A stretch of 64,000 nt of DNA. Origin: Candidatus Margulisiibacteriota bacterium (GTDB lineage Bacteria > Margulisbacteria > WOR-1 > O2-12-FULL-45-9 > XYB2-FULL-48-7). The position numbers were made by a program, and so were the translations under genes. Shown in pieces: positions 5,368-31,654 of this stretch (positions are counted from its first letter, which is position 1; the number at the start of each line of letters is the position of its first letter). The stretch lies in contig JBAZZV010000002.1 in the NCBI GenBank assembly GCA_041658645.1, positions 107,907 through 171,906 of the forward strand, in the 5' to 3' direction. The notes below the pieces were generated by a model. That model made no database searches. It worked only from the letters and a program-made list of their open reading frames with translations, and was not told where the DNA came from.

Positions 5368-6476
5368 TCCGCCCCCACGCCAATGAACATCTTCCCCGGC
5401 AATTGCCGGACGATCTTCTTGAGCTCGAGCATCATCAAGATACTGGCCGCCTGCGGCGAGGAGACACCGACCTCAACGGCGATCGCGTCAATATGCTTCG
5501 GCTCATGAGATATAACCGCAAAGATCTTCTCTTCTTCCGGGCTTAAATTTTCCGGCTTGGATATTGTTGTTTGGGTTTTGGTATTTGTTTTGAGGTTGGA
5601 TGTTTGAAGTTGGAGGTTTAACTCATCCAAAACGTCCTCAACCGTTTCCACAAGTTTTGCCCCTTGCTTGATCAGCCAGTGCGGCCCTCTGGACCCCTCA
5701 AGGCCGACGTTCCCGGGGACGGCAAAGACTTCCCGTCCCTGCTCCAGCGCTTCCTTGGCCGTGATCATCGCCCCGCTCTTGTAATCACCTTCGACCACGA
5801 TGACCCCGAGCGAGAGGCCGGAGATGATCCGGTTCCGTCGGGGAAAATTACTCCGATCGCCCCGCTCACCCAACGGGAATTCCGAGACCAGGGCGCCGGA
5901 CATTTCTATCTGTTCAGCCAGGGACTTATTGTCCGCCGGAAAAACGACGTCAACCCCGGTCCCGAAAACAGCAATCGTCCTCCCGCCCGCCGCCACGACC
6001 GCTTGATGAGCGGCGGCATCGATCCCCTGGGCTAAACCGGAGACGACGACGATCCCGAGCGCCGCTAGTTCACTCGCCAGTTTCCTGGCCGTGGCCAGGC
6101 CGTAACGGGAGGCTCGCCTTGTCCCGACAATGGCAATAGATCTTTCGCTTGGTTGTAACATCTCGCCGCGATAATAAATGACTGGCGGCGGATCGTAGAT
6201 ATGCTTGAGGAGTTCAGGATAATCGTCGTCAGCCAGGGTCAGCACTTTAACTTGCGCCGCCTCGACTTTAGCCAATTCCGCGTCAAGATCGACTTTGTCC
6301 CGGTTAGCCAGAAAAGAACTGATCGCTCTGGGCCGGAGCCCCTCGATCCCGCTAAAGTCGGTCGCCTGCCAAACCTGCTCGATCGAGCCAAAATGTTTCC
6401 AGAGCCGCTTGATCGTCACCGGCCCAAGTTCGGGGATATTATTGAGGCCTAACCAGTATTTGAGTTCTCTAAGCAA
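5364..6476 (-). CDS. dprA: DNA processing protein DprA (contains in-frame heptamer-repeat insertion in C-terminal linker)
   Basis: Rossmann-like GIDAAAHQAVVAAGGRTIAVFGTG core typical of DprA/Smf; C-terminal winged-helix region. Confidence 0.8.
   Translation of the reverse strand: MLRELKYWLGLNNIPELGPVTIKRLWKHFGSIEQVWQATDFSGIEGLRPRAISSFLANRDKVDLDAELAKVEAAQVKVLTLADDDYPELLKHIYDPPPVIYYRGEMLQPSERSIAIVGTRRASRYGLATARKLASELAALGIVVVSGLAQGIDAAAHQAVVAAGGRTIAVFGTGVDVVFPADNKSLAEQIEMSGALVSEFPLGERGDRSNFPRRNRIISGLSLGVIVVEGDYKSGAMITAKEALEQGREVFAVPGNVGLEGSRGPHWLIKQGAKLVETVEDVLDELNLQLQTSNLKTNTKTQTTISKPENLSPEEEKIFAVISHEPKHIDAIAVEVGVSSPQAASILMMLELKKIVRQLPGKMFIGVGAE
5558..5620. repeat. G/T-rich heptanucleotide tandem array (STRR-like), in frame inside dprA
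   Basis: About 9 units with 7 nt periodicity (gttgttt gggtttt ggtattt gttttga ggttgga tgtttga agttgga ggttt); encodes LQLQTSNLKTNTKTQTTISKP. Confidence 0.5.
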
Positions 6477-7779: not shown

Positions 7780-8756
7780 AAACCGATCGCCTCCTTGGCT
7801 TCGCGCAGGGTGGCGGCGGCAACCGCTCTCGCCTTCTCTCCACCGGCAAGCAAAACCTTAGCCAGCAAGTCCGGTTGTTGTTCAAAAGCTTTACGGCGCT
7901 CATGGAGCGGCGCCAGATAATCGACCAGCAACTGGGCTAATTCTTTCTTGCAGTCGACACAGCCCCGTTTGGCTGAACGGCACTCCACGGCCACCTGGTC
8001 GGCGCGCTCTTTGGCGAAAACCTGATAATAAGCATAAACCGGGCAGACCTCGGGATGGCCCAGGTCGTCACGCTTGATCCTGGCCGGGTCGGTCACCATG
8101 ATGCCGATCTTTTTCCTGATCGTCTCCGGCAGGTCGGAGATGGCGATCGTGTTCCGGTAAGACTTGCTCATCTTGCGGCCGTCCAGACCGGGGAGGACGG
8201 GAAAAGCGGTCAGGGCCCCTTGCGGTTCGGGAAAGACTTCCTTGTAAAGATAATTGAAACGGCGGGCGATCTCCCGGGTCAGCTCGAGATGCGGGAGCTG
8301 GTCTTCGCCGACCGGGACCAGATCGGCCTTATATATTAAGATGTCGGCCGCCTGCAGGACCGGATAACCGAGAAAACCGTAGGTGCCGAGGTCTTTCTCC
8401 TTCAGCTCGTCGATCTTGCTCTTGTAGGTCGGCACCCGCTCCAGCCAGGGAAGCGGCGTGATCATCGAGAAGAGGAGATGGAGTTCAGCATGTTCCGGTA
8501 TGTCCGATTGCTTGAAAATGACACACTGTTCCGGGTCCAGACCGGCCGAGAGGAGGTCGATCGCCACCTGCTTGATATCTTCGCGCAAATTGGCCGTTTC
8601 AGCGTAAGCGGTCGTCAGGGCATGAAGGTCGGCAATAAAAAAATAACAATTGTATTTGGCCTGAAGCTTGACCCAGTTCTCAACGGCGCCGATCAGGTTG
8701 CCGAGATGCAACCTACCCGTCGGTTGGATACCCGATAGAACTCTTTTTTTGCTCAT
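7776..8756 (-). CDS. trpS: Tryptophan--tRNA ligase
   Basis: 326 aa; class I aaRS HIGH-like (TGRLHLGN) and KMSKS motifs. Confidence 0.9.
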   Translation of the reverse strand: MSKKRVLSGIQPTGRLHLGNLIGAVENWVKLQAKYNCYFFIADLHALTTAYAETANLREDIKQVAIDLLSAGLDPEQCVIFKQSDIPEHAELHLLFSMITPLPWLERVPTYKSKIDELKEKDLGTYGFLGYPVLQAADILIYKADLVPVGEDQLPHLELTREIARRFNYLYKEVFPEPQGALTAFPVLPGLDGRKMSKSYRNTIAISDLPETIRKKIGIMVTDPARIKRDDLGHPEVCPVYAYYQVFAKERADQVAVECRSAKRGCVDCKKELAQLLVDYLAPLHERRKAFEQQPDLLAKVLLAGGEKARAVAAATLREAKEAIGL

Positions 8757-11458: not shown

Positions 11459-12505
11459 ATGGTGACGTCCGCGATAAATAACAATATCTCCCTTTCCATC
11501 GGACCCTTGCCTGTTGCTCGCTTTTCTGCAGCAACAAAGAAAAAATTAGACACCGCTTTTTGGAATATGCGGTTGGAACAAGTACGCTCTTTTTTAAAAG
11601 AGGGAGGCTGGTCCGCTCTCTGTGAAAGACCACCTATTCTACTTGGTGAAGCGATCTCACGCATGAAAAAATCACCAACTGTTGGCAGAGTGGATCAAAT
11701 TGCAGACAGTAATGTTCTTGAAGCAATTCAGGAGGAACGGCATCAGATTTTGCGTTTGGGAAGGGAAATCAGTGTTTTTCGTTTTTTTGGAACTCAAACA
11801 TGGTTGCTGGTTGAGGGGGATGATGAAGGGGTTGATTTACCTGGACAGGGAGAATACAGTGATGTCGAAATACATAGCCATCCTTTTTCAGGCTATTGCT
11901 TGCCATCCATAGAAGATCTGACCAGTTGCGCCAACCTTTTTTTGCAGGGTCTGGGAATTAGCAGAAACTATATTCTTTCGCATGAAGGGATCGTTCAATA
12001 TGATATTAAAAATGCTATTCCTCATTTTGTTTGGCACTCTCCTTTTATTTTTTTCAATGACTGTTTGTTTGGGACAGATGATCCGCCACCCGAGCAAAAT
12101 GACTTCCGCTTGAAAACTTATCTCCAACACGGGATATCGATCCAGAGAATTGACTGGGACAGTTTTTGCCTGGAAGATTTAACCGACCAGAAAGAGGCGC
12201 ATTCTATTACAACGCTGCTTGCATCTTCCGGCCCGGCGGAGCGAGTAGCCGGAGTTAATCTTGTTGATGTTGTAAGCAATTATAATCATTATGGCGATTT
12301 TCAATTAGCGGTCAATATTTTGCTTGAATTCTCTTCTGACCCATCACATTTAGTGCAGCTAATAGCCTTGAGCAAAGTTAGCGATGCAGTCTATGCCATT
12401 GGAAGCAAAAGTGATATGGGACGCGTTATCAGTGCTTTTAAAGATTCCGAATTCGAAATTGTTAGAAAAAAAATAAAAGTATTAAAGTTAGAGTTGGGCC
12501 TTTAA
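11459..12505 (+). CDS. Hypothetical protein with JAMM/MPN-like HSHP(x8)SxxD motif; low-GC accessory gene
   Basis: 348 aa; VEIHSHPFSGYCLPSIEDL resembles JAB/RadC metal site with one extra spacer residue; AT-rich codon usage differs from neighbours. Confidence 0.4.
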   Translation: MVTSAINNNISLSIGPLPVARFSAATKKKLDTAFWNMRLEQVRSFLKEGGWSALCERPPILLGEAISRMKKSPTVGRVDQIADSNVLEAIQEERHQILRLGREISVFRFFGTQTWLLVEGDDEGVDLPGQGEYSDVEIHSHPFSGYCLPSIEDLTSCANLFLQGLGISRNYILSHEGIVQYDIKNAIPHFVWHSPFIFFNDCLFGTDDPPPEQNDFRLKTYLQHGISIQRIDWDSFCLEDLTDQKEAHSITTLLASSGPAERVAGVNLVDVVSNYNHYGDFQLAVNILLEFSSDPSHLVQLIALSKVSDAVYAIGSKSDMGRVISAFKDSEFEIVRKKIKVLKLELGL

Positions 12506-15521: not shown

Positions 15522-15574
15522 CTTTTTCTCCTTCCCTCTGATCTCCAGTATAAGGTAAGCCAGCTGGCAAAAAA

Positions 15575-15647
15575 TGGCGCAGGCCGGAATTGAACCGGCG
15601 ACGCCTGCCTTTTCAGGGCAGCGCTCTACCAACTGAGCTACCGCGCC
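15575..15647 (-). tRNA. tRNA-Phe (anticodon GAA)
   Basis: GGCGCGG acceptor, anticodon loop CTGAAAA, T-loop TTCAATT. Confidence 0.85.
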
Positions 15648-15653
15648 ATTTTT

Positions 15654-15726
15654 TGACCCGCGTGCGACTCGAACGCACCACCACTTGCTTAAAAGGCAAG
15701 TGCTCTACCTGATGAGCTAGCGGGTC
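15654..15726 (-). tRNA. tRNA-Lys (anticodon TTT)
   Basis: GACCCGC acceptor, anticodon loop CTTTTAA, T-loop TTCGAGT. Confidence 0.85.
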
Positions 15727-15767
15727 GCGCTGACTTTATTATAACATAAACGGGCCCGGCCGGATTT

Positions 15768-15852
15768 TCCCGACGGACATTATTAATTTAAAATAATGGA
15801 AACGTCGGGATCCCGCCGCTCCGCTATATTAAATATAATAGTGAGGGCGGGA
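15768..15852. repeat. Double-hairpin repeat element, copy B; left boundary of AT-rich island
   Basis: TCCCGACG..CGTCGGGA | TCCCGCCG..GGCGGGA; flanked by tRNA-Asp-like fragments (cgtgacaggc anticodon segment; aaatccggccgggcccg T-loop/acceptor-like). Confidence 0.6.
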
Positions 15853-16025
15853 GAACACTCAGCATCTATCGTGACAGGCGACTCAAACCCCTCTTGAAAT
15901 AAGTGTATCACGAAGGATAACCCTGTTTCAAGGTGGTTTGAAATGGCTTTAAAGCAGTTTGATTGTGTTTGTTAAAAGATTGTTTGAAGGATATTAAGAA
16001 ATTAATAATTATGCTTGAATAGGGC

Positions 16026-16793
16026 CTAACGGCCCATCTCTCTTTCGAAGCAAGCATCGCAGGGCGAGTCTTGTTTTTCCGCTTTGTCTTCTTTCATAAT
16101 GGCATACTTTGTGCCACATCTAGGGCATTCCAAGACAGTTGCCTTCTGATGACAAAAATAACAATCAGCCTCATCTACCTTACTATCCAGATTAACTAAA
16201 ATTGTTTCATTCAAACAATATGGGCATTCAAGCTCTGTATAGGATGAGCCTTCTTTCCCATAGGGCGTATCGTCCCCCATTCTCGACTTAGCTTTTTTGT
16301 CTCTTTCCTCATAAGAAAACACTAACTCTTCGATTTTCTTCCAGTCCGCATCGCTAACCTGGTCTTCTATTTCCACGCCCAGTTTCTCGCTTGAAAACAC
16401 ACAGATATAATTCAACGCCTTCCCCAATATCCACTCGGCATCTTCCTTGCTTAGATGCACCTCATAATGTTGTATGTTATTTCTTTCGATTCTCAGGAAT
16501 TTCAATTGATCTGCTTTGTCGTCATCTGTTAAATCGCATTCCCTCAAACGATTAAGTAGCTCTTTATAATCTACTGTGTGCGAGCCCGTGTGCACCGGTT
16601 TCTTATCCGTATAAATTAATTCCGGACTTATTCTACGAAGAGATTCCTTAAGGAGGAGCTCGACCCCCTGATAAACACTAAGGATGGCTTGCTTATAGTC
16701 AGATTCCGCGAAATGCTTAACGCCATGATTAATTGAGTCAACGCCATTCTCAAACAAATTAAGTTTTAACATACTTAGCAACCTATCAGACAA
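16026..16793 (-). CDS. Hypothetical protein with two C-terminal Zn-ribbons (CPYC..CYFC, CPRC..CDAC) and a possible HEPN-like Rx4H (RNNIQH)
   Basis: 255 aa; four CxxC pairs; AT-rich island gene. Confidence 0.4.
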   Translation of the reverse strand: MSDRLLSMLKLNLFENGVDSINHGVKHFAESDYKQAILSVYQGVELLLKESLRRISPELIYTDKKPVHTGSHTVDYKELLNRLRECDLTDDDKADQLKFLRIERNNIQHYEVHLSKEDAEWILGKALNYICVFSSEKLGVEIEDQVSDADWKKIEELVFSYEERDKKAKSRMGDDTPYGKEGSSYTELECPYCLNETILVNLDSKVDEADCYFCHQKATVLECPRCGTKYAIMKEDKAEKQDSPCDACFEREMGR

Positions 16794-16821
16794 TATTTTT
16801 GAGCGCTAAACCATACCTATT

Positions 16822-17037
16822 TTAATAAATCCTTTTTGCACCTTTTTTACCTGTATATGGATTAACATTCCCCTTTGTTGGCCAATTATCAATCTTAGTT
16901 CTATTTGGGAATGTCTTATAATGAGGAGCAATATAAGTCCCGCTCTTTTTAATATGCCCGCTAACACGGACACTTTTTGCAAATGAAGTAAAAGCCAAAA
17001 GAGAACAAATCAAAGCCATTAATACAAGCTTTTTCAT
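16822..17037 (-). CDS. Small secreted protein
   Basis: 71 aa; signal peptide followed by a basic Gly/Lys-rich mature peptide (NPYTGKKG). Confidence 0.35.
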   Translation of the reverse strand: MKKLVLMALICSLLAFTSFAKSVRVSGHIKKSGTYIAPHYKTFPNRTKIDNWPTKGNVNPYTGKKGAKRIY

Positions 17038-17051
17038 TCTATGTCTTCCTC

Positions 17052-17357
17052 CTATTTATTCGGGGCTATGGGCTTTATTATAAACAGAGATACAAAGAAT
17101 ATGACCACTGATATGAAATCAATAATAACCCATAACTCTTTATCTAAATATATTGGAAATATAGGATTAAACAATATAGCGAGAAGAGCAAACATCCAAA
17201 CAAAAACCCTCTTTTGTTGTTCATAAGATAAATAAGTATTATAAGCCGATGCTCCACAAATAAACCACCTTAAAAGGATATAATATCCGTATGGCATGCC
17301 TACCGGGACTGCAACTAATAACATAATTATAGCTAATATTGGCACTAAATAGTTCAT
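17052..17357 (-). CDS. Small integral membrane protein
   Basis: 101 aa, 3 predicted TM helices. Confidence 0.35.
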   Translation of the reverse strand: MNYLVPILAIIMLLVAVPVGMPYGYYILLRWFICGASAYNTYLSYEQQKRVFVWMFALLAILFNPIFPIYLDKELWVIIDFISVVIFFVSLFIIKPIAPNK

Positions 17358-17372
17358 TGGTCCCCTCCTTAC

Positions 17373-18218
17373 CTACTTGTTCCCCTCATTGCGAGACCCG
17401 CTATTGTTGGAAACCTTATTTAAAAGATAAATAAATATTCCAGACATAGCTATTCCACCCCACAAAGCTATGTCTTGTCTGTAAGAATGATAGTTCTCAT
17501 CGCTATAATAACCCCAATCATTAGGAAGAAAGAATAGCACTCGCTCAAGTCCAAACATAAACAATATAGTTAAGCCAATCCCGCATCCAACGATCAAAGC
17601 ATACTCGTTTAGATATTTGATTCCAAATAAAGGAATGCTAACCAGATCCCTCCCAACTAATTTATAAAATATATAAAGAATTGTCGACAAAAACAAATAA
17701 GCAACGAGAAGGACTAAATAGGTTCCAAGACATAACGACCCAAATAAGGTCTCTTTCCATAACATTAATGTAATAATAGGAATAGCAAGCAATACGAGTA
17801 TGGCAACCACTTCAAGTCTTTCTGATGCATTTTTGCCCATAATATATTTATCCATGAACCAAAAACACCAAAGAACGACGAAGAAGATAATATAACTAAT
17901 AGATACGGCCAATAAACCAATCGAAATAGCTAAGTCAGGGATTACGAAGACAAGGACAAGAAATACAACTGAGAGCGTAGTTCCCAATAATTTAAATAAC
18001 GGTATTTTCCAGTTTTCCACCCTTCCGCCCCAGGGCCACTGCCACAGCAACATATTAAAATATGGGAGGAAAGAGATTGCAGCAAGATTCTTATAAAAGC
18101 TCCCTTCAGTATAAGCCGCGACAACGCTACCCCCAAGCCCACCAACAAAAAATACAATTACTACAACCGATCGAATCAGTTCTTCAATATGGGAGATTAA
18201 GCTATTTTTGCTATTCAC
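17373..18218 (-). CDS. Integral membrane protein
   Basis: 281 aa, 7-8 TM helices, low GC. Confidence 0.4.
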   Translation of the reverse strand: MNSKNSLISHIEELIRSVVVIVFFVGGLGGSVVAAYTEGSFYKNLAAISFLPYFNMLLWQWPWGGRVENWKIPLFKLLGTTLSVVFLVLVFVIPDLAISIGLLAVSISYIIFFVVLWCFWFMDKYIMGKNASERLEVVAILVLLAIPIITLMLWKETLFGSLCLGTYLVLLVAYLFLSTILYIFYKLVGRDLVSIPLFGIKYLNEYALIVGCGIGLTILFMFGLERVLFFLPNDWGYYSDENYHSYRQDIALWGGIAMSGIFIYLLNKVSNNSGSRNEGNK

Positions 18219-18363
18219 TTATGGTTCCCCCTTCATGCACAAAAATGGCCCTATGCTACATAAATTATATGCCACTCTTGATAGGATTATACTATTCTAG
18301 TAATTCATACGCTACCTACCGATCTCGATAGGCATACTATGCGGATGGGCCATTCAAAATAAA

Positions 18364-18378
18364 TTGTTAGAAAACAGA
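18364..18378. promoter_or_regulatory. 15 nt motif TTGTTAGAAAACAGA, copy 1 (second copy 19691-19705)
   Basis: Exact 15-mer repeated in two intergenic regions of the island. Confidence 0.3.
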
Positions 18379-18487
18379 AATAAAAGAAGAAATGCCTTGA
18401 ATTTTCATTGCTCCATATCTATAATTCCAACATACTTGTTTTTGAAGAATTGGGAAAATGAATATTTATACAAAGGGAGTCTGAGAA

Positions 18488-18751
18488 ATGTTTTACAGTC
18501 TACACATATCATTTGGCGATGGGCATAAAGGGACATCAATAATCCTGCCCGATAAAGAAGTAGAGAGGATAAATGAACTCAGGCGAATTGCTAAAGAGAT
18601 CGAAATCCTCAGCGAAACGGGCTGGAAACATACTGAACCAATCGAACAAATACATATAAACGAGAATCAAACTCGTTGGGAAGTCATTCCAATAAGCCCC
18701 AATGAACTATCAATACTTAAAAAGAAAGTCGGAATAATCCTGAGTTCCTAG
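18488..18751 (+). CDS. Hypothetical small protein
   Basis: 87 aa ORF; only plus-strand ORF in the island. Confidence 0.3.
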   Translation: MFYSLHISFGDGHKGTSIILPDKEVERINELRRIAKEIEILSETGWKHTEPIEQIHINENQTRWEVIPISPNELSILKKKVGIILSS

Positions 18752-18769
18752 CATTCCCCCGATTGAGTG

Positions 18770-19489
18770 CTACCAAGTTGTATTATATAGGGATATTTTT
18801 ATAGTGTTATCTTCAAGTTGATTAAATGATGATATGCCATATTTAATTTTCAATTTTTTATTCTGATCGTCCGCGTCTGCGTATGCATCATAAGTCCAAT
18901 AAAACCAATTGGCAATATAAACTAATGCCCAAGTTCCGCTCGAATTATTAGTGCTGGTGCCGTAATAATTATAGGATTTTGCAGTCATCCCACTGTATGA
19001 AGCAATAGCAATAACCCAAGATCCTATTGCTTTCGGCCAATTCCCATTGACAACTTGACCACCCCCAATAATCAGAAAAGAAAGTAGCGCGGATATCCCC
19101 GGGTCTTTCTTTTCTGAGCTATATAAACTTAAATTTGACAACATTCTGTCGGAACTGCCCGAATAATATTGATTAGTTGATGGGGAATAGTTCTCATCAT
19201 CAACCATTATTGTCGTTAGCTCTCCGGATTTAATTACGACTAGCTTTTCATATTTGGTCTTCAGTGATTTTGTTTCAACAGCCCTAATTGAATGGGACCC
19301 AGCAACAACTTCTTCGAGAAAAAGAGGGGTTTCTCCTGACTTTTCTTCATCTACAAACACGTAGCATGCTGGCCCCTTAGATAACACCTTTAATTGCCCA
19401 TATTGCATATCCAGTGCTAAAGCTGCGCCTGAAAAGATTATATTTAAAGCTAATATTATAAGGACAAAAAGACAAATTGTTTTTTTCAT
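18770..19489 (-). CDS. Secreted/membrane hypothetical protein (start set at MKKTICLF signal peptide)
   Basis: Signal peptide, beta-rich N-domain, two C-terminal TM segments. Confidence 0.4.
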   Translation of the reverse strand: MKKTICLFVLIILALNIIFSGAALALDMQYGQLKVLSKGPACYVFVDEEKSGETPLFLEEVVAGSHSIRAVETKSLKTKYEKLVVIKSGELTTIMVDDENYSPSTNQYYSGSSDRMLSNLSLYSSEKKDPGISALLSFLIIGGGQVVNGNWPKAIGSWVIAIASYSGMTAKSYNYYGTSTNNSSGTWALVYIANWFYWTYDAYADADDQNKKLKIKYGISSFNQLEDNTIKISLYNTTW

Positions 19490-19690
19490 ATTGGCACCTC
19501 CTAATAAATACCACCAACTCACTCAACTACATCCTGATTATACTTCAATAGAAAGCCTGGTCAAGTTTATTATTTATCCTCTTTCTCCCCATCCTTTGCC
19601 ACGCATTTTTGCCCTTACGTTTTCCCTGTCTCTGTTTAAACCAACAAGCTTTCCCCAGCAAACAACTATTCTAAATTAATTGTTAGAAGA

Positions 19691-19705
19691 TTGTTAGAAA
19701 ACAGA
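19691..19705. promoter_or_regulatory. 15 nt motif TTGTTAGAAAACAGA, copy 2, preceded by a partial repeat
   Basis: Identical to 18364-18378. Confidence 0.3.
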
Positions 19706-20208
19706 CAAGTGAGAGAATCAACGAAAAGACACAAGCCGTTAATTTTCCCTTGTTAATACGTTTAACACTCGATCCTTCGGGCATTAGTCAGAAGTGTGGC
19801 TTATCGCTGCAGAGGTCCTTGACAACTAAATATAGAGGTCAACTATTTTATCGAAATCTTTTTTGGAGAGGGATTTTTGCATATTTATTTTAACCTTTCG
19901 TTTCCCGCTCTCAAATATTAATGGAAAAACAAAAGGACAATTTTTGCTAACCATACGATACTCTATGTATAAATCAAAAAGGAATTTGATTATCTCTGCA
20001 ATATTGAACACAAACATTATGGTTTGCCATTCAGGGCAACCACCCATCCCCGGCATAATCCCCGCCCTGCCGTGAACGGCAACTATTCTTACTTTCTTTT
20101 TAGAAACAGGTTTTTCTTGAATGGCCTTCTTGTCAATGCTTTTTATTATTTTTTGACATCGAAGGGGTTATCCCCGGGAATAGTAAGTTTAATAACCTTC
20201 TTTTTCAT

Positions 20209-20412
20209 TTAAATGTTTTTATCACGAAAGGAATAGAAGAGAATACCCAAAATAATTGTAAATGGTAAAAATACAATAAATAAAAACATAAGGAGTTTTA
20301 TTAATAGGCCCTCTAACGAATAAACGTTTGAATTCCATAGTCCAAATAAAATAAAAAAGAATGAAGATGAAATACCTAATATCCACAATATAACCGTTTG
20401 CTTTTTATTCAT
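20209..20412 (-). CDS. Small membrane protein
   Basis: 67 aa, two TM helices. Confidence 0.3.
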   Translation of the reverse strand: MNKKQTVILWILGISSSFFFILFGLWNSNVYSLEGLLIKLLMFLFIVFLPFTIILGILFYSFRDKNI

Positions 20413-20547
20413 ATTATGCCATCCCTATTTCAAAAGTTCTTCAATCCGAACCCTAAGTACTTTAGCGATAATCTGAATGGTTGACAAATTGAATTATACA
20501 CCCAAACAATAGTAATGCATAATAAAAGAAACTGGCCCAAAGGGATT

Positions 20548-20632
20548 TCCCCGACGGACATTAATATATAAATAATAGAAACGTCGGGATCCCGCCGTTC
20601 CACTATATCAAAATATATTAATGAGGGCGGGA
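20548..20632. repeat. Double-hairpin repeat element, copy C; right boundary of island, inserted in the T-loop of a partial tRNA-Asp duplicate
   Basis: Flanks ctgtcCcgcaggagaccgagggGTTC | element | AATccctttgggcc match tRNA-Asp from anticodon loop to acceptor 3' strand. Confidence 0.65.
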
Positions 20633-20735
20633 GAACCCCTCGGTCTCCTGCGGGACAGAACATACGAGAAGAAACTAAACTTGTTCTCCGTAGCCACGAG
20701 TCCCGACGAATAGTCGGGACGAGGGCGAAGGAGAA

Positions 20736-20811
20736 CGGGCCCGAAGGGATTTGAACCCTCGGTCTCCTGCGTGACAGGCAGGCGCGTTAAACCAGACTAC
20801 GCTACGGGCCC
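20736..20811 (-). tRNA. tRNA-Asp (anticodon GTC)
   Basis: GGGCCCG acceptor, anticodon loop CTGTCAC, T-loop TTCAAAT. Confidence 0.85.
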
Positions 20812-20939
20812 GCGCGAACCTCAACTTATAACCGATAACCGATAACTAATAACTTAGAAACTGTCACTTTATCAATTATCATTCAAAAAATTATTATACC
20901 AGCTAAAGGGGATGTTGGAAAGGTGTATTATGTAACTTT

Positions 20940-21284
20940 TTAAATTGAATTGATCAGCCCCAGGAGCATCTTCGAGATCTCTTCAAACACGGCATACAAT
21001 TCCTTTTGTTGCAGTTCGTTGATCACTTTATCATCAGATAACAAGTCGATGATCGCGACTACCTCGTAGGTTGACCCGCGCGCGATAGTAAAGAAGTTTT
21101 TCTTATCGGCGCTTGACGATTTGCCGGTTCCTTCGGCTATATTGAGAACTATGCTTAGCGCTGCCCTTTTAAGCTGATCAAAAAGGGCTTTATCGACGTG
21201 GTGGCTGTTGGCCAAAAGAGCGAATAGAAGCTTCCGTGCTTCCTTGGCCTTCTGATAAACCTTCAGTTTTTCAAAATCAAACAT
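20940..21284 (-). CDS. Four-helix-bundle protein (23S rRNA intervening-sequence / TIGR02436-like family)
   Basis: 114 aa; VLNIAEGTGKSS...FFTIARGSTYE motifs characteristic of the IVS-encoded four-helix bundle family. Confidence 0.65.
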   Translation of the reverse strand: MFDFEKLKVYQKAKEARKLLFALLANSHHVDKALFDQLKRAALSIVLNIAEGTGKSSSADKKNFFTIARGSTYEVVAIIDLLSDDKVINELQQKELYAVFEEISKMLLGLINSI

Positions 21285-21377
21285 AATAAATAGTACTTAG
21301 TGTGAGTGTGCGTCTTGAGTCTTGAGCGTCGTCCGCTAACTACTAACTACTCACACTCACTCTCAAGACTTAATAAA

Positions 21378-21463
21378 CGGAGGGGGAGAGATTCGAACTC
21401 TCGCTACCTTACGGTACTAACGGTTTAGCAAACCGTCCCCTTGAACCACTTGGGTACCCCTCC
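21378..21463 (-). tRNA. tRNA-Ser (anticodon GCT)
   Basis: Long variable arm; GGAGGGG acceptor; anticodon loop TTGCTAA. Confidence 0.85.
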
Positions 21464-21524
21464 ATGCTCGCTATCGCTCGAAATCCTAAATCCTAAATTC
21501 TAAATCCGAAATATAAGGTCGAAA

Positions 21525-21611
21525 CGGAGGGAGGAGGATTTGAACCTCCGATACCCTTGCGGGCATACTAGTTTTCAAGACTAGCGCCATCAGCCGCTCG
21601 GCCATCCCTCC
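21525..21611 (-). tRNA. tRNA-Ser (anticodon TGA)
   Basis: Long variable arm; GGAGGGA acceptor; anticodon loop CTTGAAA. Confidence 0.85.
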
Positions 21612-21716
21612 TCGCTCAACGAACGCTCACATTAACAATTTAGTTTATTTTTTGCAAGCTTCACTTATTATAAGTTGTGTTAGCTTGCTTTTCAAGCCCG
21701 CCTTAGGAATAATCGC

Positions 21717-21746
21717 TTGACTGCCGCGCAAGGACGCAGGTATAAT
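21717..21746 (+). promoter_or_regulatory. Sigma70-like promoter upstream of the LexA-methyltransferase gene (TTGACT-N18-TATAAT)
   Basis: Near-consensus -35 and -10 hexamers about 50 nt upstream of the start. Confidence 0.45.
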
Positions 21747-21797
21747 TAGGTCAATCGAAAATGAATCGAAAGTCAAGCGAAGGTAAGTGAAGGTCAA

Positions 21798-23252
21798 ATG
21801 ATCACCAAGAGGCAAAAACAGACCCTGGACTTTATAAAAAACCATCAACTTAGGAGAGGGTATGCCCCTTCCCTTGAGGAGATCAAGGATCATCTTAAAC
21901 TTTCTTCCGTATCAACGGCACATCATCATGTTAAAGCATTGGAAGCGCTTGGATTGCTAAAAAAAAAGGAAAACCAGCCACGCGCAATTAGTCTTTATGA
22001 TAATGAACAGTTAATTAGTATGCCTTTGCTTGGAACCATTGCCGCCGGTGAACCCATTGAAGCTATTCAGGAAAAAGAAATAATTGCCATTCCCAAATCA
22101 AAATTAACTCAAAATGGTGAGTTTTACGCGCTACGTGTTTCTGGCAATAGCATGACAGATGAAAACATTAATGATGGCGATATCATTATAGTAAAAAGCC
22201 AGTCAACGGCCAATAATGGGGAAAAAGTTGTTGCCTTAATAGACAATCAAGCAGTAACCCTAAAAAAGCTGTACAAAGAAAACAAAAACATTCGACTTCA
22301 ACCAGCTAACTCAACTATGCCCCCAATGATATTCTCCCCACAAAGGGTAAATATTCAAGGAGTCGTTGTTGAGATCGTTAAGTCCGATAAACATTCGTCG
22401 CCAGGCATGAGATATTCACCTGAAAACAATTTAGCTGCTCCCCAACATCAAAGTATTAACAATTTCCTGAACAGAGTACTTCAAGGCGATTGCCTTGAAG
22501 TAATGAAAACCATGCCTCCGAAATCAATAAATATGGTTCTGTGTGATCTCCCTTATGGAAACACCCAAAACAAATGGGACAGCATTATCCCCCTTGATAA
22601 ACTATGGACTGAATATGAAAGAATAATTAAAGATAATGGTGTTATAGTTCTTACCTCACAAGGGTTGTTTACCGCCCAATTAATCCTATCCAATCCAAGG
22701 TTATTTAAGTATAAGATTATTTGGGTAAAATCTAAGCCAACTAATTTCCTTAATGCAAAGAAACAACCGCTTCGGAGGCACGAGGATATATGCATATTTT
22801 ACAAAAACCAACCCGATTATAATCCGCAAATGACTCCCGGAGAGCCTTATAACAAGGGGTTCAGGAAAAATCAGCTGACAGGCTGTTATGGGGATTTTAA
22901 GCCTGTTAAAGTTAAAAGTGATGGCCAGCGGTATCCCACAGATGTTGTTTATTTCAAAACGGCAGAGAGTGAAGGCGTTGTTCACCATCCTACTCAAAAA
23001 CCAGTCGAGCTAGGCAGATACCTAATTAAAACATTTACAAAACCAGGAGACATTATCCTCGACAATACTTGCGGCAGTGGGAGTTTTCTTGTTTCAGCCG
23101 TTCTTGAGGATCGATTGTTTATTGGTATCGAAAAAAATGAGGAAGTATTTTTGCACAAAAAGCATCATATTGACTATATTGAAATCTGCAACAAAAGAAT
23201 TAAAGAAGCAAAAAGGAAGGCCGCTGTCGAAAACAGCAGATTGTTCGCCTAA
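21798..23252 (+). CDS. Fusion protein: full-length LexA repressor (wHTH + S24 peptidase) fused to beta-class N6-adenine/N4-cytosine DNA methyltransferase
   Basis: N-terminus has the LexA cleavage site AAGEP, catalytic SGNSM and TLKKL; C-terminus has GDCLEVMKTMPPKSINMVLCDLPYG (CcrM-like DPPY region), HPTQKP and DNTCGSGS (FxGxG). Confidence 0.75.
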   Translation: MITKRQKQTLDFIKNHQLRRGYAPSLEEIKDHLKLSSVSTAHHHVKALEALGLLKKKENQPRAISLYDNEQLISMPLLGTIAAGEPIEAIQEKEIIAIPKSKLTQNGEFYALRVSGNSMTDENINDGDIIIVKSQSTANNGEKVVALIDNQAVTLKKLYKENKNIRLQPANSTMPPMIFSPQRVNIQGVVVEIVKSDKHSSPGMRYSPENNLAAPQHQSINNFLNRVLQGDCLEVMKTMPPKSINMVLCDLPYGNTQNKWDSIIPLDKLWTEYERIIKDNGVIVLTSQGLFTAQLILSNPRLFKYKIIWVKSKPTNFLNAKKQPLRRHEDICIFYKNQPDYNPQMTPGEPYNKGFRKNQLTGCYGDFKPVKVKSDGQRYPTDVVYFKTAESEGVVHHPTQKPVELGRYLIKTFTKPGDIILDNTCGSGSFLVSAVLEDRLFIGIEKNEEVFLHKKHHIDYIEICNKRIKEAKRKAAVENSRLFA

Positions 23253-24172
23253 ATACCCGTGTAAGGTTCTTTTTTCAGTATTTGGGCAGCCCTTTCTAAT
23301 TCTTTGTCTGTTATTAAACCTTCCTCTTTAAACCATTCTAAAAGATGAAAATATTGATTTGAGCTTAAAATCGGCTTAATTTCATTAGTTATATTTGCTT
23401 TTTTCTTAATATATTCCAAGTGTTTATTGTTCAATATGCCTCGACCAATCAAGTCGTAGGTAATACGTATCGCATCAACTGAAGTGAGATTCAAATCCCC
23501 TTTTCGAGCTATATCAGCATTGACATCAGATTGGTCTATTTTGAGCAACTCATCTAAGCTTTGTAAGCCATTCAAATTTTTATTATAAAATTCAATATCA
23601 TGCTTTTGATAAGTAAACCACGTCTTGCCTTGTTCGGTTAATGAGCCTCTAGGTAAATACACGCCTTCTCGTTTAACCCTTTCTTTCGAAACCCAACCAC
23701 ATATATATAATATCCATTTTTGTCTTTTTGTCCCAGGTAGTTTTCTTGTTTTTTTACTAGGGGTTTTAAGGTGTGTCATTAAGTATATATCTACATCTAA
23801 TCGATCATCGTTCATTTGCCTTGGCCAAAAATTATGTTTTGCTTCTCTTGGAATATCATCGTTGCTTAAATATTCCTCTTTAAATGGCAGCGTGCCGCCT
23901 CTGCATTTAACATCAACCTTGATTCCGGTTGGAAGCAGAAAATCATAACCTAAAGAAGGCCGATTGCTTGGATTAATTTCAGGCATTCCTAAATATTTCC
24001 GTACAACTATTTCCGCCAAAGCACCAAACCCCTGCTGTTCTTCACTCCCTCTTTCTGCTCCGGTTGTATTCGGATTAGCGGAAACGAACTGAAATGCCTT
24101 TTGGCGCAAATCAAACCCAGCAGAATCAATCAGTTTGATGGGGATTGGTTTTGGTTTGCTGTATTGATACAT
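23249..24172 (-). CDS. Putative restriction endonuclease-like PD-(D/E)xK nuclease, convergent with and overlapping the methyltransferase gene by 4 nt
   Basis: 307 aa; SLGYDFLLPTGIKVDVKC fits D-x(n)-D-x-K; low GC; no other similarity visible by eye. Confidence 0.35.
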   Translation of the reverse strand: MYQYSKPKPIPIKLIDSAGFDLRQKAFQFVSANPNTTGAERGSEEQQGFGALAEIVVRKYLGMPEINPSNRPSLGYDFLLPTGIKVDVKCRGGTLPFKEEYLSNDDIPREAKHNFWPRQMNDDRLDVDIYLMTHLKTPSKKTRKLPGTKRQKWILYICGWVSKERVKREGVYLPRGSLTEQGKTWFTYQKHDIEFYNKNLNGLQSLDELLKIDQSDVNADIARKGDLNLTSVDAIRITYDLIGRGILNNKHLEYIKKKANITNEIKPILSSNQYFHLLEWFKEEGLITDKELERAAQILKKEPYTGI

Positions 24173-24205
24173 ATCGCCCGCCTTTGAAGGGAAACTTAAT
24201 CCGCG

Positions 24206-25858
24206 CTATTCTTCCCCGCCCGAGATCAGCTTTTCGATCTGTTTTTTCGCAAAAGGGGCCTTAGAGATTATCTCAGCCGCTTCCGCCCGGGTCAAGTTGA
24301 GTTTCGGGCCGAACGATTGCCCGGACAAGTACTCGAATAGTCCGGCCGTTTTGGTCGCGGCTACGGCCGGCGAGGCCCAATGGTCGACAGGCATGTCCGG
24401 GAACGGCCGCGCCGCCAGCTTCGGTTTCTGATAAAGCCCCGCCCAACGGGCCAAAATCATCGCCCCTTCCGCCCGGGTAACGCGATTCTGCGGCCGGAAG
24501 GCCTTATCGGGATAACCGTTGATATATTTTCTCTCCACGGCAAAGCTGATGTAGGGGGCTTCAAAACTTTGCAGCGGCACGTCCTTGAACCTGACCCGGA
24601 CGTCAGTGCCGACGGTAAAGCCTTTTGCCTTGACCAGCAGGACCGCCAGCTCGCCCCGGGTCAGCTCCTGGGTCGGCCGGAAAGTGTTGTCGCCATAACC
24701 GCCCATGATCCCCAGGGTCGACAGATACTCAATCGGTTTTTTAGCCCAATAGCCATCAGGCACGTCGCTAAAGGACTTCAACTTCGGTTTGGCAACGATC
24801 TCCGGCTGGGGGATGGTCGAGCGCCGGTTCTTCTTCTCGGCAGCGGCCTTCTCCCGCAGTTTTTCCCGGTCGGTCCCGCGGTAGCCTAGCGAGAAGAAAT
24901 GCGTGGCGTTCTCTGACAGCTCGCCGAACTGGTGATAGGCGTAGTCAAAAGTAAAACCGCCAAAAGCGAAACCGACGCCGGCCGTCAGGTTATTATCGAC
25001 GCCGACGCCGCTCTCGGTCGCCCGCGGTTTCTGGTCAAGGCCAAGGCGGAGGGCTAGCGTCTCGATCGGCCAGAATTCGGAACCGAGATGAAAAACCCCG
25101 GGCCGGCCGACCGCCTGGCTCTTTTCATAATCACACATCAGATCTAGATTGCTCCAGAGGGCGTAATGCCCGCCGGCCCGCGTGATCAAGGGGATCCCTT
25201 CGATCACCCCGTTTTTCTGCCAGGTAAACTTCCCGCCAAAAGTGGCCGGCAGGAAATTTTGCAGAGTTAAACCAAGGCTTAATTTTGAATTAGTTTCCCA
25301 GAGGACCCCGAGATCGGCGTCCATCCCGCTCCCGTTCGCGTTCTGCATCGCCGAGCCGCCGCCGGAAAAACCTTGCGAGAGGAGCTTCAAGGTCGCTCCC
25401 AGAGAGACATTCTGCCCTGCCCCATTGCGCAGGAAGCGGCTTAACTTGGACCCATATGAAAAGAGGACCAGGCTGGAACCATAATCGGTTGAATCATATT
25501 GCTGCGCTTCCAGGCTCGGCCCGGAGCCAACCAGGCGCGTCAACGGAATGGCCGTCACCGCCGCGTTAATGTAGCCGACCCCGAACTTGCCGAGCGGTGA
25601 TTCGTTGGCCGCGCCGATCAGGACGTAATTGATGTCGCCCAGCAGCGCCCCGCTCATGCTGGTCAAGTTGAGGTTCTTGTTGCGGGCCAGCCCGGCTGGA
25701 TTGGTAAAAATAGCATTGGCGTCATCGGCCAAGCCAACATAAGCGCGCCCCAGGCCAAGCGGCCGGGCGCCGACACCGATCTCGCTCAAGTCAAGCGCGG
25801 CCATGGCTGTCGAACCGCATAAAACGACGGCTAACAGCGGGAAAAAAAGCTGTTTCAT
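24206..25858 (-). CDS. Outer-membrane beta-barrel-like protein with three C-terminal S-layer homology (SLH) domains
   Basis: Signal peptide; beta-rich N-domain (GFTFDYAYH); three SLH repeats (FSDVPDGYWA.., FKDVPLQSFEAPYI.., FPDMPVDHWASPAV..). Confidence 0.55.
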   Translation of the reverse strand: MKQLFFPLLAVVLCGSTAMAALDLSEIGVGARPLGLGRAYVGLADDANAIFTNPAGLARNKNLNLTSMSGALLGDINYVLIGAANESPLGKFGVGYINAAVTAIPLTRLVGSGPSLEAQQYDSTDYGSSLVLFSYGSKLSRFLRNGAGQNVSLGATLKLLSQGFSGGGSAMQNANGSGMDADLGVLWETNSKLSLGLTLQNFLPATFGGKFTWQKNGVIEGIPLITRAGGHYALWSNLDLMCDYEKSQAVGRPGVFHLGSEFWPIETLALRLGLDQKPRATESGVGVDNNLTAGVGFAFGGFTFDYAYHQFGELSENATHFFSLGYRGTDREKLREKAAAEKKNRRSTIPQPEIVAKPKLKSFSDVPDGYWAKKPIEYLSTLGIMGGYGDNTFRPTQELTRGELAVLLVKAKGFTVGTDVRVRFKDVPLQSFEAPYISFAVERKYINGYPDKAFRPQNRVTRAEGAMILARWAGLYQKPKLAARPFPDMPVDHWASPAVAATKTAGLFEYLSGQSFGPKLNLTRAEAAEIISKAPFAKKQIEKLISGGEE

Positions 25859-25928
25859 GCTTGCGTTTATTATCGCCGATAACATCAAACCTGTCAACTT
25901 CGATTAATTATGATAAAATGAAATAATA

Positions 25929-27710: not shown

Positions 27711-29038
27711 CCGCCTCGCTCTACGTCCACATCCCCTTTTGCAAACAAAAGTGCAACTACTGTGATTTCGTTTCTTATGCCGGGAAGGAAAATTTCATTG
27801 ACGAGTATGTTGAGACGATGATCCGAGAATTCGAGTCCCGGTGTTCTGTGCTCTATGTTCCGTGTTCTACTGTCTTCTTCGGCGGCGGGACCCCGACCCT
27901 GCTCGAACCAAAGCATTTCGATAAAATATTATCCACATTCATTAGTCATTCGTCATTAGTCATTAGTCATTCAGAGATCTCCATCGAAGCTAATCCAGGA
28001 ACTGCCGGCAAAGCCAAGCTAAAAGCCCTTAGACAACTCGGTATCAACCGTCTCTCGATCGGCGTCCAGTCGTTCAACGACCGGCAGCTAAAGACCCTGG
28101 GGCGGATCCATGACTCCGCCACAGCTAAACGTTTTTATCAGGACGCGCGTGACGCCGGCTTCGACAATATTAATCTCGATCTGATCTTCGCCCTGCCCGG
28201 GCAGACCTTAGCTGAATGGAAACGCGATCTGGCCACGGCGATCGCGCTAAAACCAGAACATCTTTCAACTTATAATTTACAAATTGAAGAGGGAACACCT
28301 TTCTGGGAAAGGTTCAAAGAGCCCTCACCCGCTGCCGCAAACCGACGCACCCTCTCCCAGAGGGAGAGGGTAATGAGCCAAGCAGACTTGCAAAACACCT
28401 TCTCCCCCCCTCACCCGCTTACGCAAAGTGTCCCCCCTCTCCCAGAGGGAGAGGGTACTTCGCCTTTAATTCCCGTTTGCGCAACACCTTCTCCCTTTGG
28501 GAGAAGGTGCGCCTCCTTGGCGCATTGGATGAGGGGAGAGAAGGTGCATAGTTCTGGTAGAGCGGATGAGGGCCTCAGTCTCCCTTCCGAAGATGAAGAG
28601 CTGGCAATGTATGAATATGCCATCGAAGAACTGGCCGCTCACGGCTACAAACATTATGAGATCTCTAATTTTGCTAAACCGGGTTATGAATGTCAGCACA
28701 ATTTGGTTTACTGGCGGAACGAGAATTATCTCGGCATTGGCGCCGGCGCGCACTCCCATGTAAACGGCCAGCGCTGGTCTAATCCAAACTGTATCGAAAA
28801 ATACCTGGAAACCGCGACGTTTAGTCGCAGGTTTCCAGGTTCGACTGCCGACCAACGCGAAACGATCTTCCTCGGCCTCCGCCTCCTGGACGGTTTGTCA
28901 ATTAAGAAATTTAAAGGCTTTGAGGCTCAAGTCGCTGAACTGATAAAAGACGGCTTGTTAACCGAGGAAAAGGGGAATTATAAACTAACCCGGCAAGGTC
29001 TATATCTGGGCAATCTGGTCTTCGAGAAGTTCGTATAA
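27707..29038 (+). CDS. hemW: Radical SAM heme chaperone HemW (HemN-like), carrying an approximately 84 aa in-frame insertion
   Basis: [10 protein letters not shown] (CxxxCxxC); GGGTPT; C-terminal HemN domain; start ATG overlaps lepA stop (ATGA). Confidence 0.8.
27936..27974. repeat. Heptanucleotide tandem repeat CATT(A/C)GT, about 5.5 copies, inside the hemW coding region
   Basis: cattcattagtcattcgtcattagtcattagtcattcag; encodes [13 protein letters not shown]. Confidence 0.5.
28321..28573. mobile_element. MITE-like hairpin repeat element (TIR GCCCTCACC/GGTGAGGGC-like), copy 1, inserted in frame within hemW
   Basis: Contains two CCCTCTCCC-AGA-GGGAGAGGG perfect hairpins plus CACCTTCTCCC-TTT-GGGAGAAGGTG; ends gccctcaccc ... 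tggtagagcggatgagggc; homologous to the 49391-49521 copy. Confidence 0.55.
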
Positions 29039-30986: not shown

Positions 30987-31298
30987 ATGTTAAATGAAGA
31001 ATCAAAAATAAAAATAGATTCATTGACAATAAAAGAATTGGGGGAAAACCTTGCGTTCAGCTATTACGGGGCAATGGATTCAGAGAAGTCGAGATATGCT
31101 CAACATGTTCTTGAGATGAAAAAACGAGAAGAAAACGATGACAGAATCTTGGCTTTGATAGGTTCAATAGGCAATTTAGCTAATTCAAACGAGAAAACAG
31201 CTAAATCTCAAGGTCAACTTACGTTTTGGCAGGTTGTTTTGGCGGGAGCACTCACACTAGCCACATTTGGGTTGATTTATGTTACGTGGATTAAATAA
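30987..31298 (+). CDS. Small hypothetical protein with a C-terminal TM helix (cassette cargo)
   Basis: 103 aa, AT-rich. Confidence 0.35.
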   Translation: MLNEESKIKIDSLTIKELGENLAFSYYGAMDSEKSRYAQHVLEMKKREENDDRILALIGSIGNLANSNEKTAKSQGQLTFWQVVLAGALTLATFGLIYVTWIK

Positions 31299-31654
31299 TG
31301 CAAATTCAGGATAGAGCACTGGAATTTGCGGTCAGGATAATAAAGTTTGCTGATAAGTTACCGAAATCGGCAGCGGGGGCGGTTTTGGTTAAGCAATTGA
31401 TCCGTTCCGGGACATCGATTGGGGCGAATATGGAAGAAGCGGATGGCGCTTCGTCGAAAGCCGATTTTATTAATAAAGTAACGATTGCTAGGAAAGAAGC
31501 AAGGGAAACGCATTATTGGCTACAGCTAATTAAGAAGGCGGAATTGATACATAAAGATAATATTGTTGAATTGGATAGTTTAATTAATGAGGCGGAAGAA
31601 TTGAAGCGTGTTCTTAGCGCAATCATTAACAAAGCAAGAGAAAAGAAACAATGA
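31298..31654 (+). CDS. Four-helix-bundle protein (23S rRNA IVS-encoded protein family)
   Basis: 118 aa; GTSIGANMEEADGASSKADFINKVTIARKEARETHYWLQL matches the family signature. Confidence 0.7.
   Translation: MQIQDRALEFAVRIIKFADKLPKSAAGAVLVKQLIRSGTSIGANMEEADGASSKADFINKVTIARKEARETHYWLQLIKKAELIHKDNIVELDSLINEAEELKRVLSAIINKAREKKQ

Follow-up and report, generated by a model that had tools for sequence, protein, structure and literature searches.

A DNA methyltransferase fused to a complete LexA repressor in a candidate restriction-modification module of Margulisbacteria

What might a DNA methyltransferase gain from carrying a whole LexA repressor? The question is raised by a gene within a stretch of 64,000 nucleotides from a Candidatus Margulisiibacteriota bacterium (assembly GCA_041658645.1, contig JBAZZV010000002.1, positions 107,907 to 171,906 of the forward strand), which we refer to as the window. 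The gene encodes a LexA-methyltransferase fusion and faces a second gene, whose product is a candidate nuclease. Type II restriction-modification (R-M) systems endanger their own host whenever repair or recombination yields unmethylated sites, and a methyltransferase (M) equipped with the damage sensor of the cell would, if our reading is true, be a simple solution to this risk of self-restriction. With moderate confidence, we explain the locus as a Type II R-M module of Candidate Phyla Radiation (CPR)/Patescibacteria origin, horizontally acquired by a Margulisbacteria chromosome, in which a methyltransferase with a complete LexA would provide a damage-induced shift toward modification. The architecture, its conservation, the placement of the operator, the linkage to the partner gene and the rule of gene order described below were computed directly. 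A preliminary description of this DNA had proposed a possible SOS-coupled R-M module, and the sequence analysis overall supports that proposal. Our finding is wider, in that the module in the window is one member of a recurrent design that is shared by many unrelated CPR restriction systems.

A complete LexA joined to a methyltransferase

The fusion gene contains the following features.

21798..23252, + strand: LexA-methyltransferase fusion gene, 484 amino acids (aa); LexA repressor, linker and beta-class DNA methyltransferase
21801..21986, + strand: LexA winged helix-turn-helix (wHTH) DNA-binding domain, aa 2-63 (Pfam PF01726, E 2e-15)
22023..22370, + strand: Peptidase S24 catalytic/dimerisation domain, aa 76-191 (Pfam PF00717, E 2e-30)
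22044..22049, + strand: predicted self-cleavage site Ala83-Gly84, aligned to E. coli LexA Ala84-Gly85
22149-22151, + strand: Ser118, catalytic residue of the S24 domain, in SGNSM
22263-22265, + strand: Lys156, catalytic residue of the S24 domain, in TLKKL
22383..22472, + strand: flexible linker, about aa 196-225, without Pfam coverage
22473..23249, + strand: beta-class N6_N4 DNA methyltransferase domain (Pfam PF01555, residues 244-450, E 1e-24)

The N-terminal 196 aa align from end to end with solved LexA structures (Thermotoga 3k2z, E 3e-32; E. coli LexA), and comparison with PDB sequences also aligned the wHTH with the LexA structures 1jhh and 1lea. The Pfam match to Peptidase_S24 is full-length (model positions 1-116 of 116), and the fusion scores 183.8 bits with TIGR00498, the NCBIfam equivalog model for lexA, against a cut-off of 110.95, with model positions 4-200 of 203 covered. 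Ala83-Gly84, Ser118 and Lys156 align with A84-G85, S119 and K156 of E. coli LexA. The preliminary description had recognized a complete LexA from the motifs AAGEP, SGNSM and TLKKL; all three are present, and the S24 catalytic residues hold up on proper alignment. By its wHTH, its S24 domain with scissile bond and dyad, and its TIGR00498 score, the N-terminal part would qualify as a complete and apparently self-cleaving LexA repressor. The protein departs from LexA as a stand-alone controller of the SOS regulon, which comprises about 200 aa, through its length of 484 aa and its fused methyltransferase.

The C-terminal part has CcrM, M.RsrI and M.MboIIA as its best solved relatives among PDB sequences, and the fusion matches the PADLOC model MTase_II (PDLC03251, E 4e-63). 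Motif IV (D250-L-P-Y253) lies ahead of motif I (D422-N-T-C-G-S-G428), which is the circular permutation of the beta class. These features place the enzyme, as far as the alignments indicate, among the beta-class N6_N4 amino-methyltransferases, in agreement with the CcrM-like assignment made earlier from DLPYG preceding DNTCGSGS. In an AlphaFold2 model, the fusion consists of three modules that each fold separately. The helices of the wHTH (H4-20, H26-33 and H38-50) have predicted local distance difference test (pLDDT) values of 78-88, and the cleavage loop at residues 84-93 has low values and is flexible. Linker residues 198-215, which fall within the stretch of about 30 aa previously described as a linker, are disordered at pLDDT below 50, and their columns are unconserved in the family consensus.

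A frameshift (raised earlier as a possible artefact) or chimera that joins separate lexA and methyltransferase genes has next to no probability and can be considered ruled out: four assemblies (two from ENA, one from JGI and one from Logan) encode one and the same 484 aa protein, and about 90 protein clusters at 58-89% identity repeat the three-domain order in proteins of about 480 aa, which is what the proposed database search for the same domain order returned. Dozens of other fusions from many sequencing projects share the architecture. Nothing was found for an artefact at this locus, but a split LexA-methyltransferase frame does occur elsewhere, in the complete Parcubacteria genome AP024682.1 (L067:3989-5840; related loci are given L numbers). 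There, a LexA-gamma-methyltransferase frame (N6_Mtase/Eco57I) is divided into a wHTH of 68 aa and an S24-methyltransferase part of 567 aa, which could reflect a frameshift, a pseudogene or a sequencing error. The LexA box that precedes this split frame is perfect (37.1 bits).

Conservation within the fusions bears on whether self-cleavage matters. Across all 44 family members compared, the cleavage site, the catalytic Ser and Lys, and methyltransferase motifs IV and I do not vary, and the LexA cleavage and catalytic residues are retained in 53-54 of 54 other LexA-type open reading frames (ORFs), a pattern that marks the fusion as being under selection. One alternative is that the LexA part merely supplies a ready-made dimeric DNA-binding module with which M represses itself, such that cleavage in the SOS response is irrelevant or vestigial. 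Self-repression by methyltransferases through an N-terminal HTH is well established (SsoII, EcoRII and ScrFI; PMC3874152), and the methyltransferase family of the fusion itself has members with only a wHTH and no S24 domain (P0095, P0100 and P0104), members with an unrelated N-terminal domain (P0112 and P0116), and bare methyltransferases; regulation without cleavage evidently works because the first two types exist. However, about 140 fusions that span 48-89% identity all retain Ala-Gly, Ser and Lys, and dimerisation alone would not preserve a nucleophile, a general base and a scissile bond. Within the family, the LexA part evolves faster than the methyltransferase part (52-60% versus 75-79% identity), yet it never loses these residues. 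We therefore regard plain autoregulation as unlikely, and the invariance of the catalytic residues argues against a purely structural role for S24. In P0112 and P0116, the domain that replaces LexA is about 100 aa long (FKSIYFPDY...GFVLAFGERNKD...NTYCLWYLRKNL), has no Pfam match and may be another regulatory or DNA-binding module.

The predicted operator and the convergent partner

Upstream of the fusion gene lie a promoter and a predicted operator.

21717..21746, + strand: sigma-70-type promoter of the fusion gene; TTGACT, 18 nt spacer, TATAAT; 11 of 12 consensus positions
21750..21776, - strand: predicted LexA operator; tandem direct repeat TTGAC-TTTCGAT-TCAT-TTTCGAT-TGAC, 21 nt before the ATG

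The promoter is the best + strand site within 21500-24700, and TTGAC with a TATAAT-like hexamer occurs at the equivalent place in the relatives L229, L230 and L011. The operator directly follows the promoter and spans the predicted transcription start. It is the sole zero-mismatch match to TTTCKRTN4TTTCKRT in the 64 kb and the sole strong match to the position weight matrix (PWM) in the window, at 31.6 bits. Scanning for other LexA boxes in the window gave no second strong match, and a match with one mismatch at 28782-28799 lies inside an ORF and probably arose by chance. When this upstream region is aligned with those of relatives whose proteins are 89%, 83% and 66% identical, conservation is confined to a single block, AATCGAAAATRAATCGAAAG. 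More broadly, the upstream regions of 54 non-redundant LexA-type ORFs share the consensus TTGAC-TTTCGAT-TTAT-TTTCGAT-TATA. The box lies 6-60 nt 5' of the start codon in about 50 of these 54, either between the -35 and -10 hexamers or directly after the -10, and promoters of LexA-type genes account for 65 of the 66 strong box matches in 521 kb of related loci. An exact search of metagenomes with the 20 nt operator returned at least 120 contigs; among the 80 that were read, a LexA-type gene follows the box in 63 (46 complete fusions, 16 ORFs cut by a contig end and one standalone LexA). The AG, GxSM and TLK signatures are present in all 46 complete fusions of this operator-only sample. The same box precedes the standalone LexA genes L048 and L050, which suggests that it is probably the CPR LexA box or a close variant. 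These data point to autoregulation of the fusion through a LexA box in its own promoter, with a motif that is common to standalone CPR lexA genes.

At 21761-21787 (- strand), a third, degenerate repeat (CTTCGCT; PWM 14.5 bits) keeps the 11 nt phasing of the TTTCGAT pair toward the start codon, and the repeats may belong to a longer array in which the TTGAC flank of the consensus box acts as spacer. Exact boxes also occur 5' of four genes that encode neither LexA nor a methyltransferase: L119:163-1515, L168:208-1296, L128:166-1557 and L159:84-1511. Their products are an OLD-like protein (AAA_21/AAA_15 with TOPRIM), a DUF4238 protein and two unannotated proteins of 464 and 476 aa. Since these boxes stand before other defence-like CPR genes, the same LexA-type control may operate there.

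The gene that faces the fusion has the following features.

23249..24172, - strand: partner gene, 307 aa; candidate PD-(D/E)xK restriction endonuclease (R), convergent with the fusion gene and overlapping it by 4 nt
23942-23944, - strand: partner residue D77, invariant
23906-23914, - strand: partner residues D87-V-K89, invariant
24267..24295, - strand: weak promoter-like site 5' of the partner gene; TTGACC, 17 nt spacer, GATAAT with TG; 10 of 12 consensus positions

The convergent ORF with its 4 nt overlap and the D...DVK motif (YD77...D87-V-K89), both of which had been pointed out before, are confirmed. E54, D77 and D87-x-K89 are invariant in the partner family, and the C-terminal domain is helical. 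At least 509 proteins of about 305 aa belong to this family, and every one is annotated as hypothetical and lacks a Pfam domain; an exhaustive search over 50% representatives returned 56 relatives, mostly fragments. Partners that are 63-67% identical are convergent and overlapping in three unrelated genomic contexts, and the same arrangement is found in the two closest relatives of the module. By sequence, the partner has no match in Pfam, NCBIfam, PADLOC or PDB sequences, and a Foldseek comparison with PDB returned no match below E 0.8, EcoRV appearing only among the noise. We conclude that the partner appears to be strictly co-inherited, convergent and nuclease-like, which makes it a candidate restriction endonuclease. 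That the module is not an R-M system at all, but an orphan SOS-linked methyltransferase with, for example, an epigenetic or repair-related role, accompanied by a convergent accessory gene that encodes no nuclease, seems to us decidedly improbable.

Pattern and PWM scans of the window found no LexA box on the partner side. The start of the partner gene lies 33 nt past the stop of an adjoining host gene (24206-25897, - strand; 563 aa, three SLH domains and a weak TraF_2-like beta-barrel match), and read-through transcription into the nuclease gene is therefore possible. With only these 33 nt between them, and with no separate small HTH controller gene in the window, the locus gave no sign of a controller (C) protein. 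The closest relative, L229, whose fusion is 89% identical, has a 73 aa XRE-type HTH gene (L229:5220-5441, - strand) located 4 nt 5' of its nuclease gene. This gene matches HTH_3/HTH_19/HTH_31, resembles a C protein, is preceded by AT-rich repeats (catattggcatattacataatggaatatatcatataggctataat), and is absent from the window and from the other loci of the family.

Recurrence of the design and the proposed damage response

We examined how widely LexA is joined to methyltransferases using a locus scan with one genome per species and 8-mer peptide patterns, which bias the sample. The scan gave dozens of ORFs of 460-620 aa in which a LexA that is 48-68% identical to that of the window is followed by a DNA methyltransferase, and all 20 ORFs tested with Pfam contain a full LexA and a methyltransferase. 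The fused enzymes include several unrelated beta-class N6_N4 families, a permuted type of about 620 aa, Dam-like D12, C5-cytosine and gamma-class N6_Mtase/Eco57I methyltransferases, such that one LexA-plus-operator cassette is attached to methyltransferases of at least five classes. The LexA of the window is closer to the LexA of fusions with unrelated methyltransferases (66-68%) than to that of fusions within its own methyltransferase family (52-60%), which indicates that the LexA module has been exchanged between methyltransferases. An earlier impression that this LexA clade is nearly always fused was overturned by a search with LexA only, since the first sample had been skewed by the 8-mer peptide patterns. 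Most of the closest relatives in the LexA-only search are ordinary standalone Patescibacteria LexA proteins (200-215 aa, 57-64% identity), and the fusions, as judged by these comparisons, form a large derived minority rather than the rule.

The neighbours of the other fusions point to restriction. Their convergent neighbours match RE_HindIII (E 2e-76), MvaI_BcnI (1e-41) and Endonuc-BglII (4e-18), and another is a His-Me/EndoVII nuclease with a restriction-enzyme SH3 domain. Tightly coupled downstream genes (n=45) are convergent in 32 cases and co-directional in 13. None of the 32 convergent neighbours has a methyltransferase motif, and they comprise at least 11 unrelated families, whereas 12 of the 13 co-directional neighbours are second methyltransferases. 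At these two-methyltransferase loci, the next gene is convergent and abutting in all 11 that were checked; their larger convergent genes received no identification from Pfam. Taken together, every one of the 43 loci has a LexA-controlled unit made up solely of methyltransferase genes, with the presumed nuclease gene facing it. The 307 aa partner in the window and several other convergent partners are unannotated candidate restriction enzymes. Two genomes encode two LexA-methyltransferase genes within a few kb (L031:943-2805 and 4001-5524; L058:4001-5704 and 8291-8656). A separate box precedes each of these paired genes, and in L031 each also has a convergent partner to itself, which indicates that several such systems can coexist; their operators would presumably cross-talk.

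Based on the gene order and the conserved cleavage residues, we propose the following mechanism. The fusion would dimerise through its S24 domain, bind the operator at 21750-21776 and repress its own promoter, which would hold M at a set level without a regulator supplied by the host. Upon DNA damage, RecA filaments on single-stranded DNA would stimulate self-cleavage at Ala83-Gly84, and cleavage would release the wHTH and derepress the M promoter. More methyltransferase would then be made, both as the full fusion and as an S24-methyltransferase fragment. Because R never belongs to the LexA-controlled unit and in every case faces it, induced M transcription would also run antisense into the R gene. 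Overall, DNA damage would tip the balance toward modification, in a Type II counterpart of restriction alleviation that would shield unmethylated products of repair and recombination from self-restriction.

The same components could instead form a suicide switch that is triggered by damage or infection and likened to abortive infection or post-segregational killing. Here, the methyltransferase would act as an antitoxin: cleavage would expose degrons, the S24-methyltransferase fragment would be degraded, methylation would lapse, and the stable nuclease would cut the chromosome and kill the cell. Such a switch would fit the strictly conserved catalytic residues and the defence islands in which the closest relatives of the module sit, next to abortive-infection genes, as well as the few LexA boxes that precede other defence-like genes (the OLD-like ATPase/TOPRIM protein and DUF4238). 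Fragments of E. coli LexA are quickly degraded after cleavage, by ClpXP and Lon. In addition, R-M systems resemble toxin-antitoxin (TA) modules in their behaviour, and there are TA systems coupled to the SOS response (PMC3874152). However, cleavage also removes the repressor, such that new fusion protein would be made faster, and death at every episode of DNA damage seems costly for chromosomal systems that are so widespread. Furthermore, the placement of R outside the LexA-controlled unit and facing it, as observed in 43 of 43 loci, is needed to avoid raising R during damage and is not needed by a suicide switch. Based on this gene-order rule, we favour protection over suicide, which we consider a doubtful account of the module.

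Several points weigh against a damage-induced shift to modification. Degradation of the S24-methyltransferase fragment by proteases like ClpXP and Lon could reverse the predicted effect. Binding of the operator by the fusion is read from the co-occurrence of box and gene, and the mechanism presupposes that the RecA of Margulisbacteria would activate a foreign LexA. We infer the antisense component purely from the gene layout; a terminator-like hairpin just past the R stop (23221-23239, - strand) was considered as support for one-way antisense transcription and set aside, because it is conserved only in the relative L012. Finally, the wHTH-only, other-N-domain and bare methyltransferases of the family indicate that cleavage is dispensable in some systems.

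The proposed system shares individual features with several known ones. M.SsoII/M.Ecl18kI, M.EcoRII and M.ScrFIA also combine an N-terminal DNA-binding domain with an operator in their own promoter and lack a separate regulator gene. Their N-terminal module is an HTH of about 70 aa, whereas that of the fusion is a whole LexA of about 200 aa with a self-cleaving/dimerisation S24 domain, which is interchangeable among methyltransferase classes and has a LexA-type tandem repeat as its operator. Their genes are also divergent, in contrast to the convergent genes described here (4 nt overlap; 43 of 43 related loci), and because of this orientation there is no shared control region from which M could activate R. 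Relative to LexA (TIGR00498), the fusion has the full domain set, the Ala-Gly site, the Ser/Lys dyad and an operator on its own promoter, but it adds about 260 aa of C-terminal methyltransferase, resides on a mobile R-M module of foreign base composition, and has its own operator as the only detectable one in the 64 kb window. The C-protein systems (C.PvuII, C.BamHI, C.AhdI and C.Esp1396I) resemble the module in that a dedicated HTH regulator balances or times R and M within a mobile unit, although C proteins are small separate proteins that mainly activate and then repress the C-R operon and have neither a protease domain nor damage sensing. The S24 repressors of mobile elements (lambda CI and SXT SetR) and the LexA-controlled TA genes (tisB, symE and yafNO) likewise let a selfish or defensive element sense RecA-dependent damage. 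In those cases, the repressor is free-standing and the output is induction of a prophage or integrative conjugative element or expression of a toxin, whereas the module has its sensor joined covalently to the enzyme that confers protection in an R-M pair. The function proposed here, a brief drop in self-restriction when unmodified sites appear, is that of Type I restriction alleviation, in which ClpXP degrades HsdR; that process acts by proteolysis of the translocating R subunit and is independent of LexA cleavage (PMC11109961), whereas the mechanism proposed here would be transcriptional and would boost M. The literature searched contained no comparable restriction-alleviation mechanism for Type II systems.

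The recurrence of the design across unrelated CPR restriction systems suggests a built-in link from DNA damage to self-protection. We tentatively extend this to a general regulatory principle of Type II R-M, a generalization that we hold less firmly than our explanation of the module itself: unrelated systems, whose methyltransferases are of the beta, permuted, Dam-like, C5 and gamma types and whose convergent partners fall into at least 14 unrelated families, would have captured a host-type LexA together with its operator. The pair would act in cis as a portable sensor of damage and function wherever the host has RecA, with cleavage raising modification and convergent transcription lowering restriction. 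If true, mobile defence genes can adopt LexA as a plug-in module, CPR bacteria, which depend heavily on R-M, wire their defence to the SOS signal, and the cassette needs so little from its surroundings that it can pass into an unrelated phylum. A compact damage-responsive switch could also be built from the operator-repressor pair. No description of LexA-methyltransferase fusions was found in the literature searched, which included a 2013 review of R-M regulation and a 2026 preprint on CPR methyltransferases, with the 2017 paper on the Patescibacteria SOS network (Sanchez-Osuna, Barbe and Erill, Environ Microbiol 19:3465) outside the search. The design is widespread and apparently an undescribed variant of R-M regulation.

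Probable foreign origin and genomic surroundings

The surroundings of the module provide context for its origin and do not bear on its mechanism.

15750..24200 (approximate), no strand: low-GC island that holds the module; GC 0.31-0.45 versus about 0.58 in the flanks
21377-21464 and 21525-21611: two tRNA-Ser genes beside the module

The position beside tRNA-Ser genes and the low GC content of the partner gene had both been noted before and are borne out here. The GC content at third codon positions (GC3) is 0.31-0.36 for the module genes and 0.70-0.79 for neighbouring host genes, which indicates horizontal transfer; nearby host genes encode an SLH-domain protein, LepA, HemN and HrcA-GrpE-DnaK. 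The partner protein of the window is assigned by NCBI to a metagenome-assembled genome of Candidatus Margulisiibacteriota. Most relatives of the module are from Patescibacteria. A second Margulisbacteria metagenome-assembled genome (L012) contains the module in a different genomic context, and stable inheritance at a single chromosomal site in Margulisbacteria is therefore not supported. Matches on viral contigs were to the methyltransferase part only, without LexA fusions, and the 64 kb window contains no second LexA gene and no RecA gene.

The remainder of the island (15750-20700; GC 0.31-0.41) encodes small hypothetical proteins, several of which appear membrane-associated, and includes one DUF6804 protein and one weak PEGA-domain match; tRNA-Phe and tRNA-Lys genes (15574-15726) mark its left boundary. 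Two 23S_rRNA_IVP/four-helix-bundle genes (TIGR02436) lie in separate low-GC patches at 20940-21284 (- strand) and 31298-31654 (+ strand), the former between a tRNA-Asp gene and the two tRNA-Ser genes and adjoining the module. Isolated low-GC genes (GC3 0.34-0.37) also occur amid high-GC host genes at 11459-12505 (+ strand) and 30987-31298 (+ strand), which suggests that the genome has several small foreign inserts.

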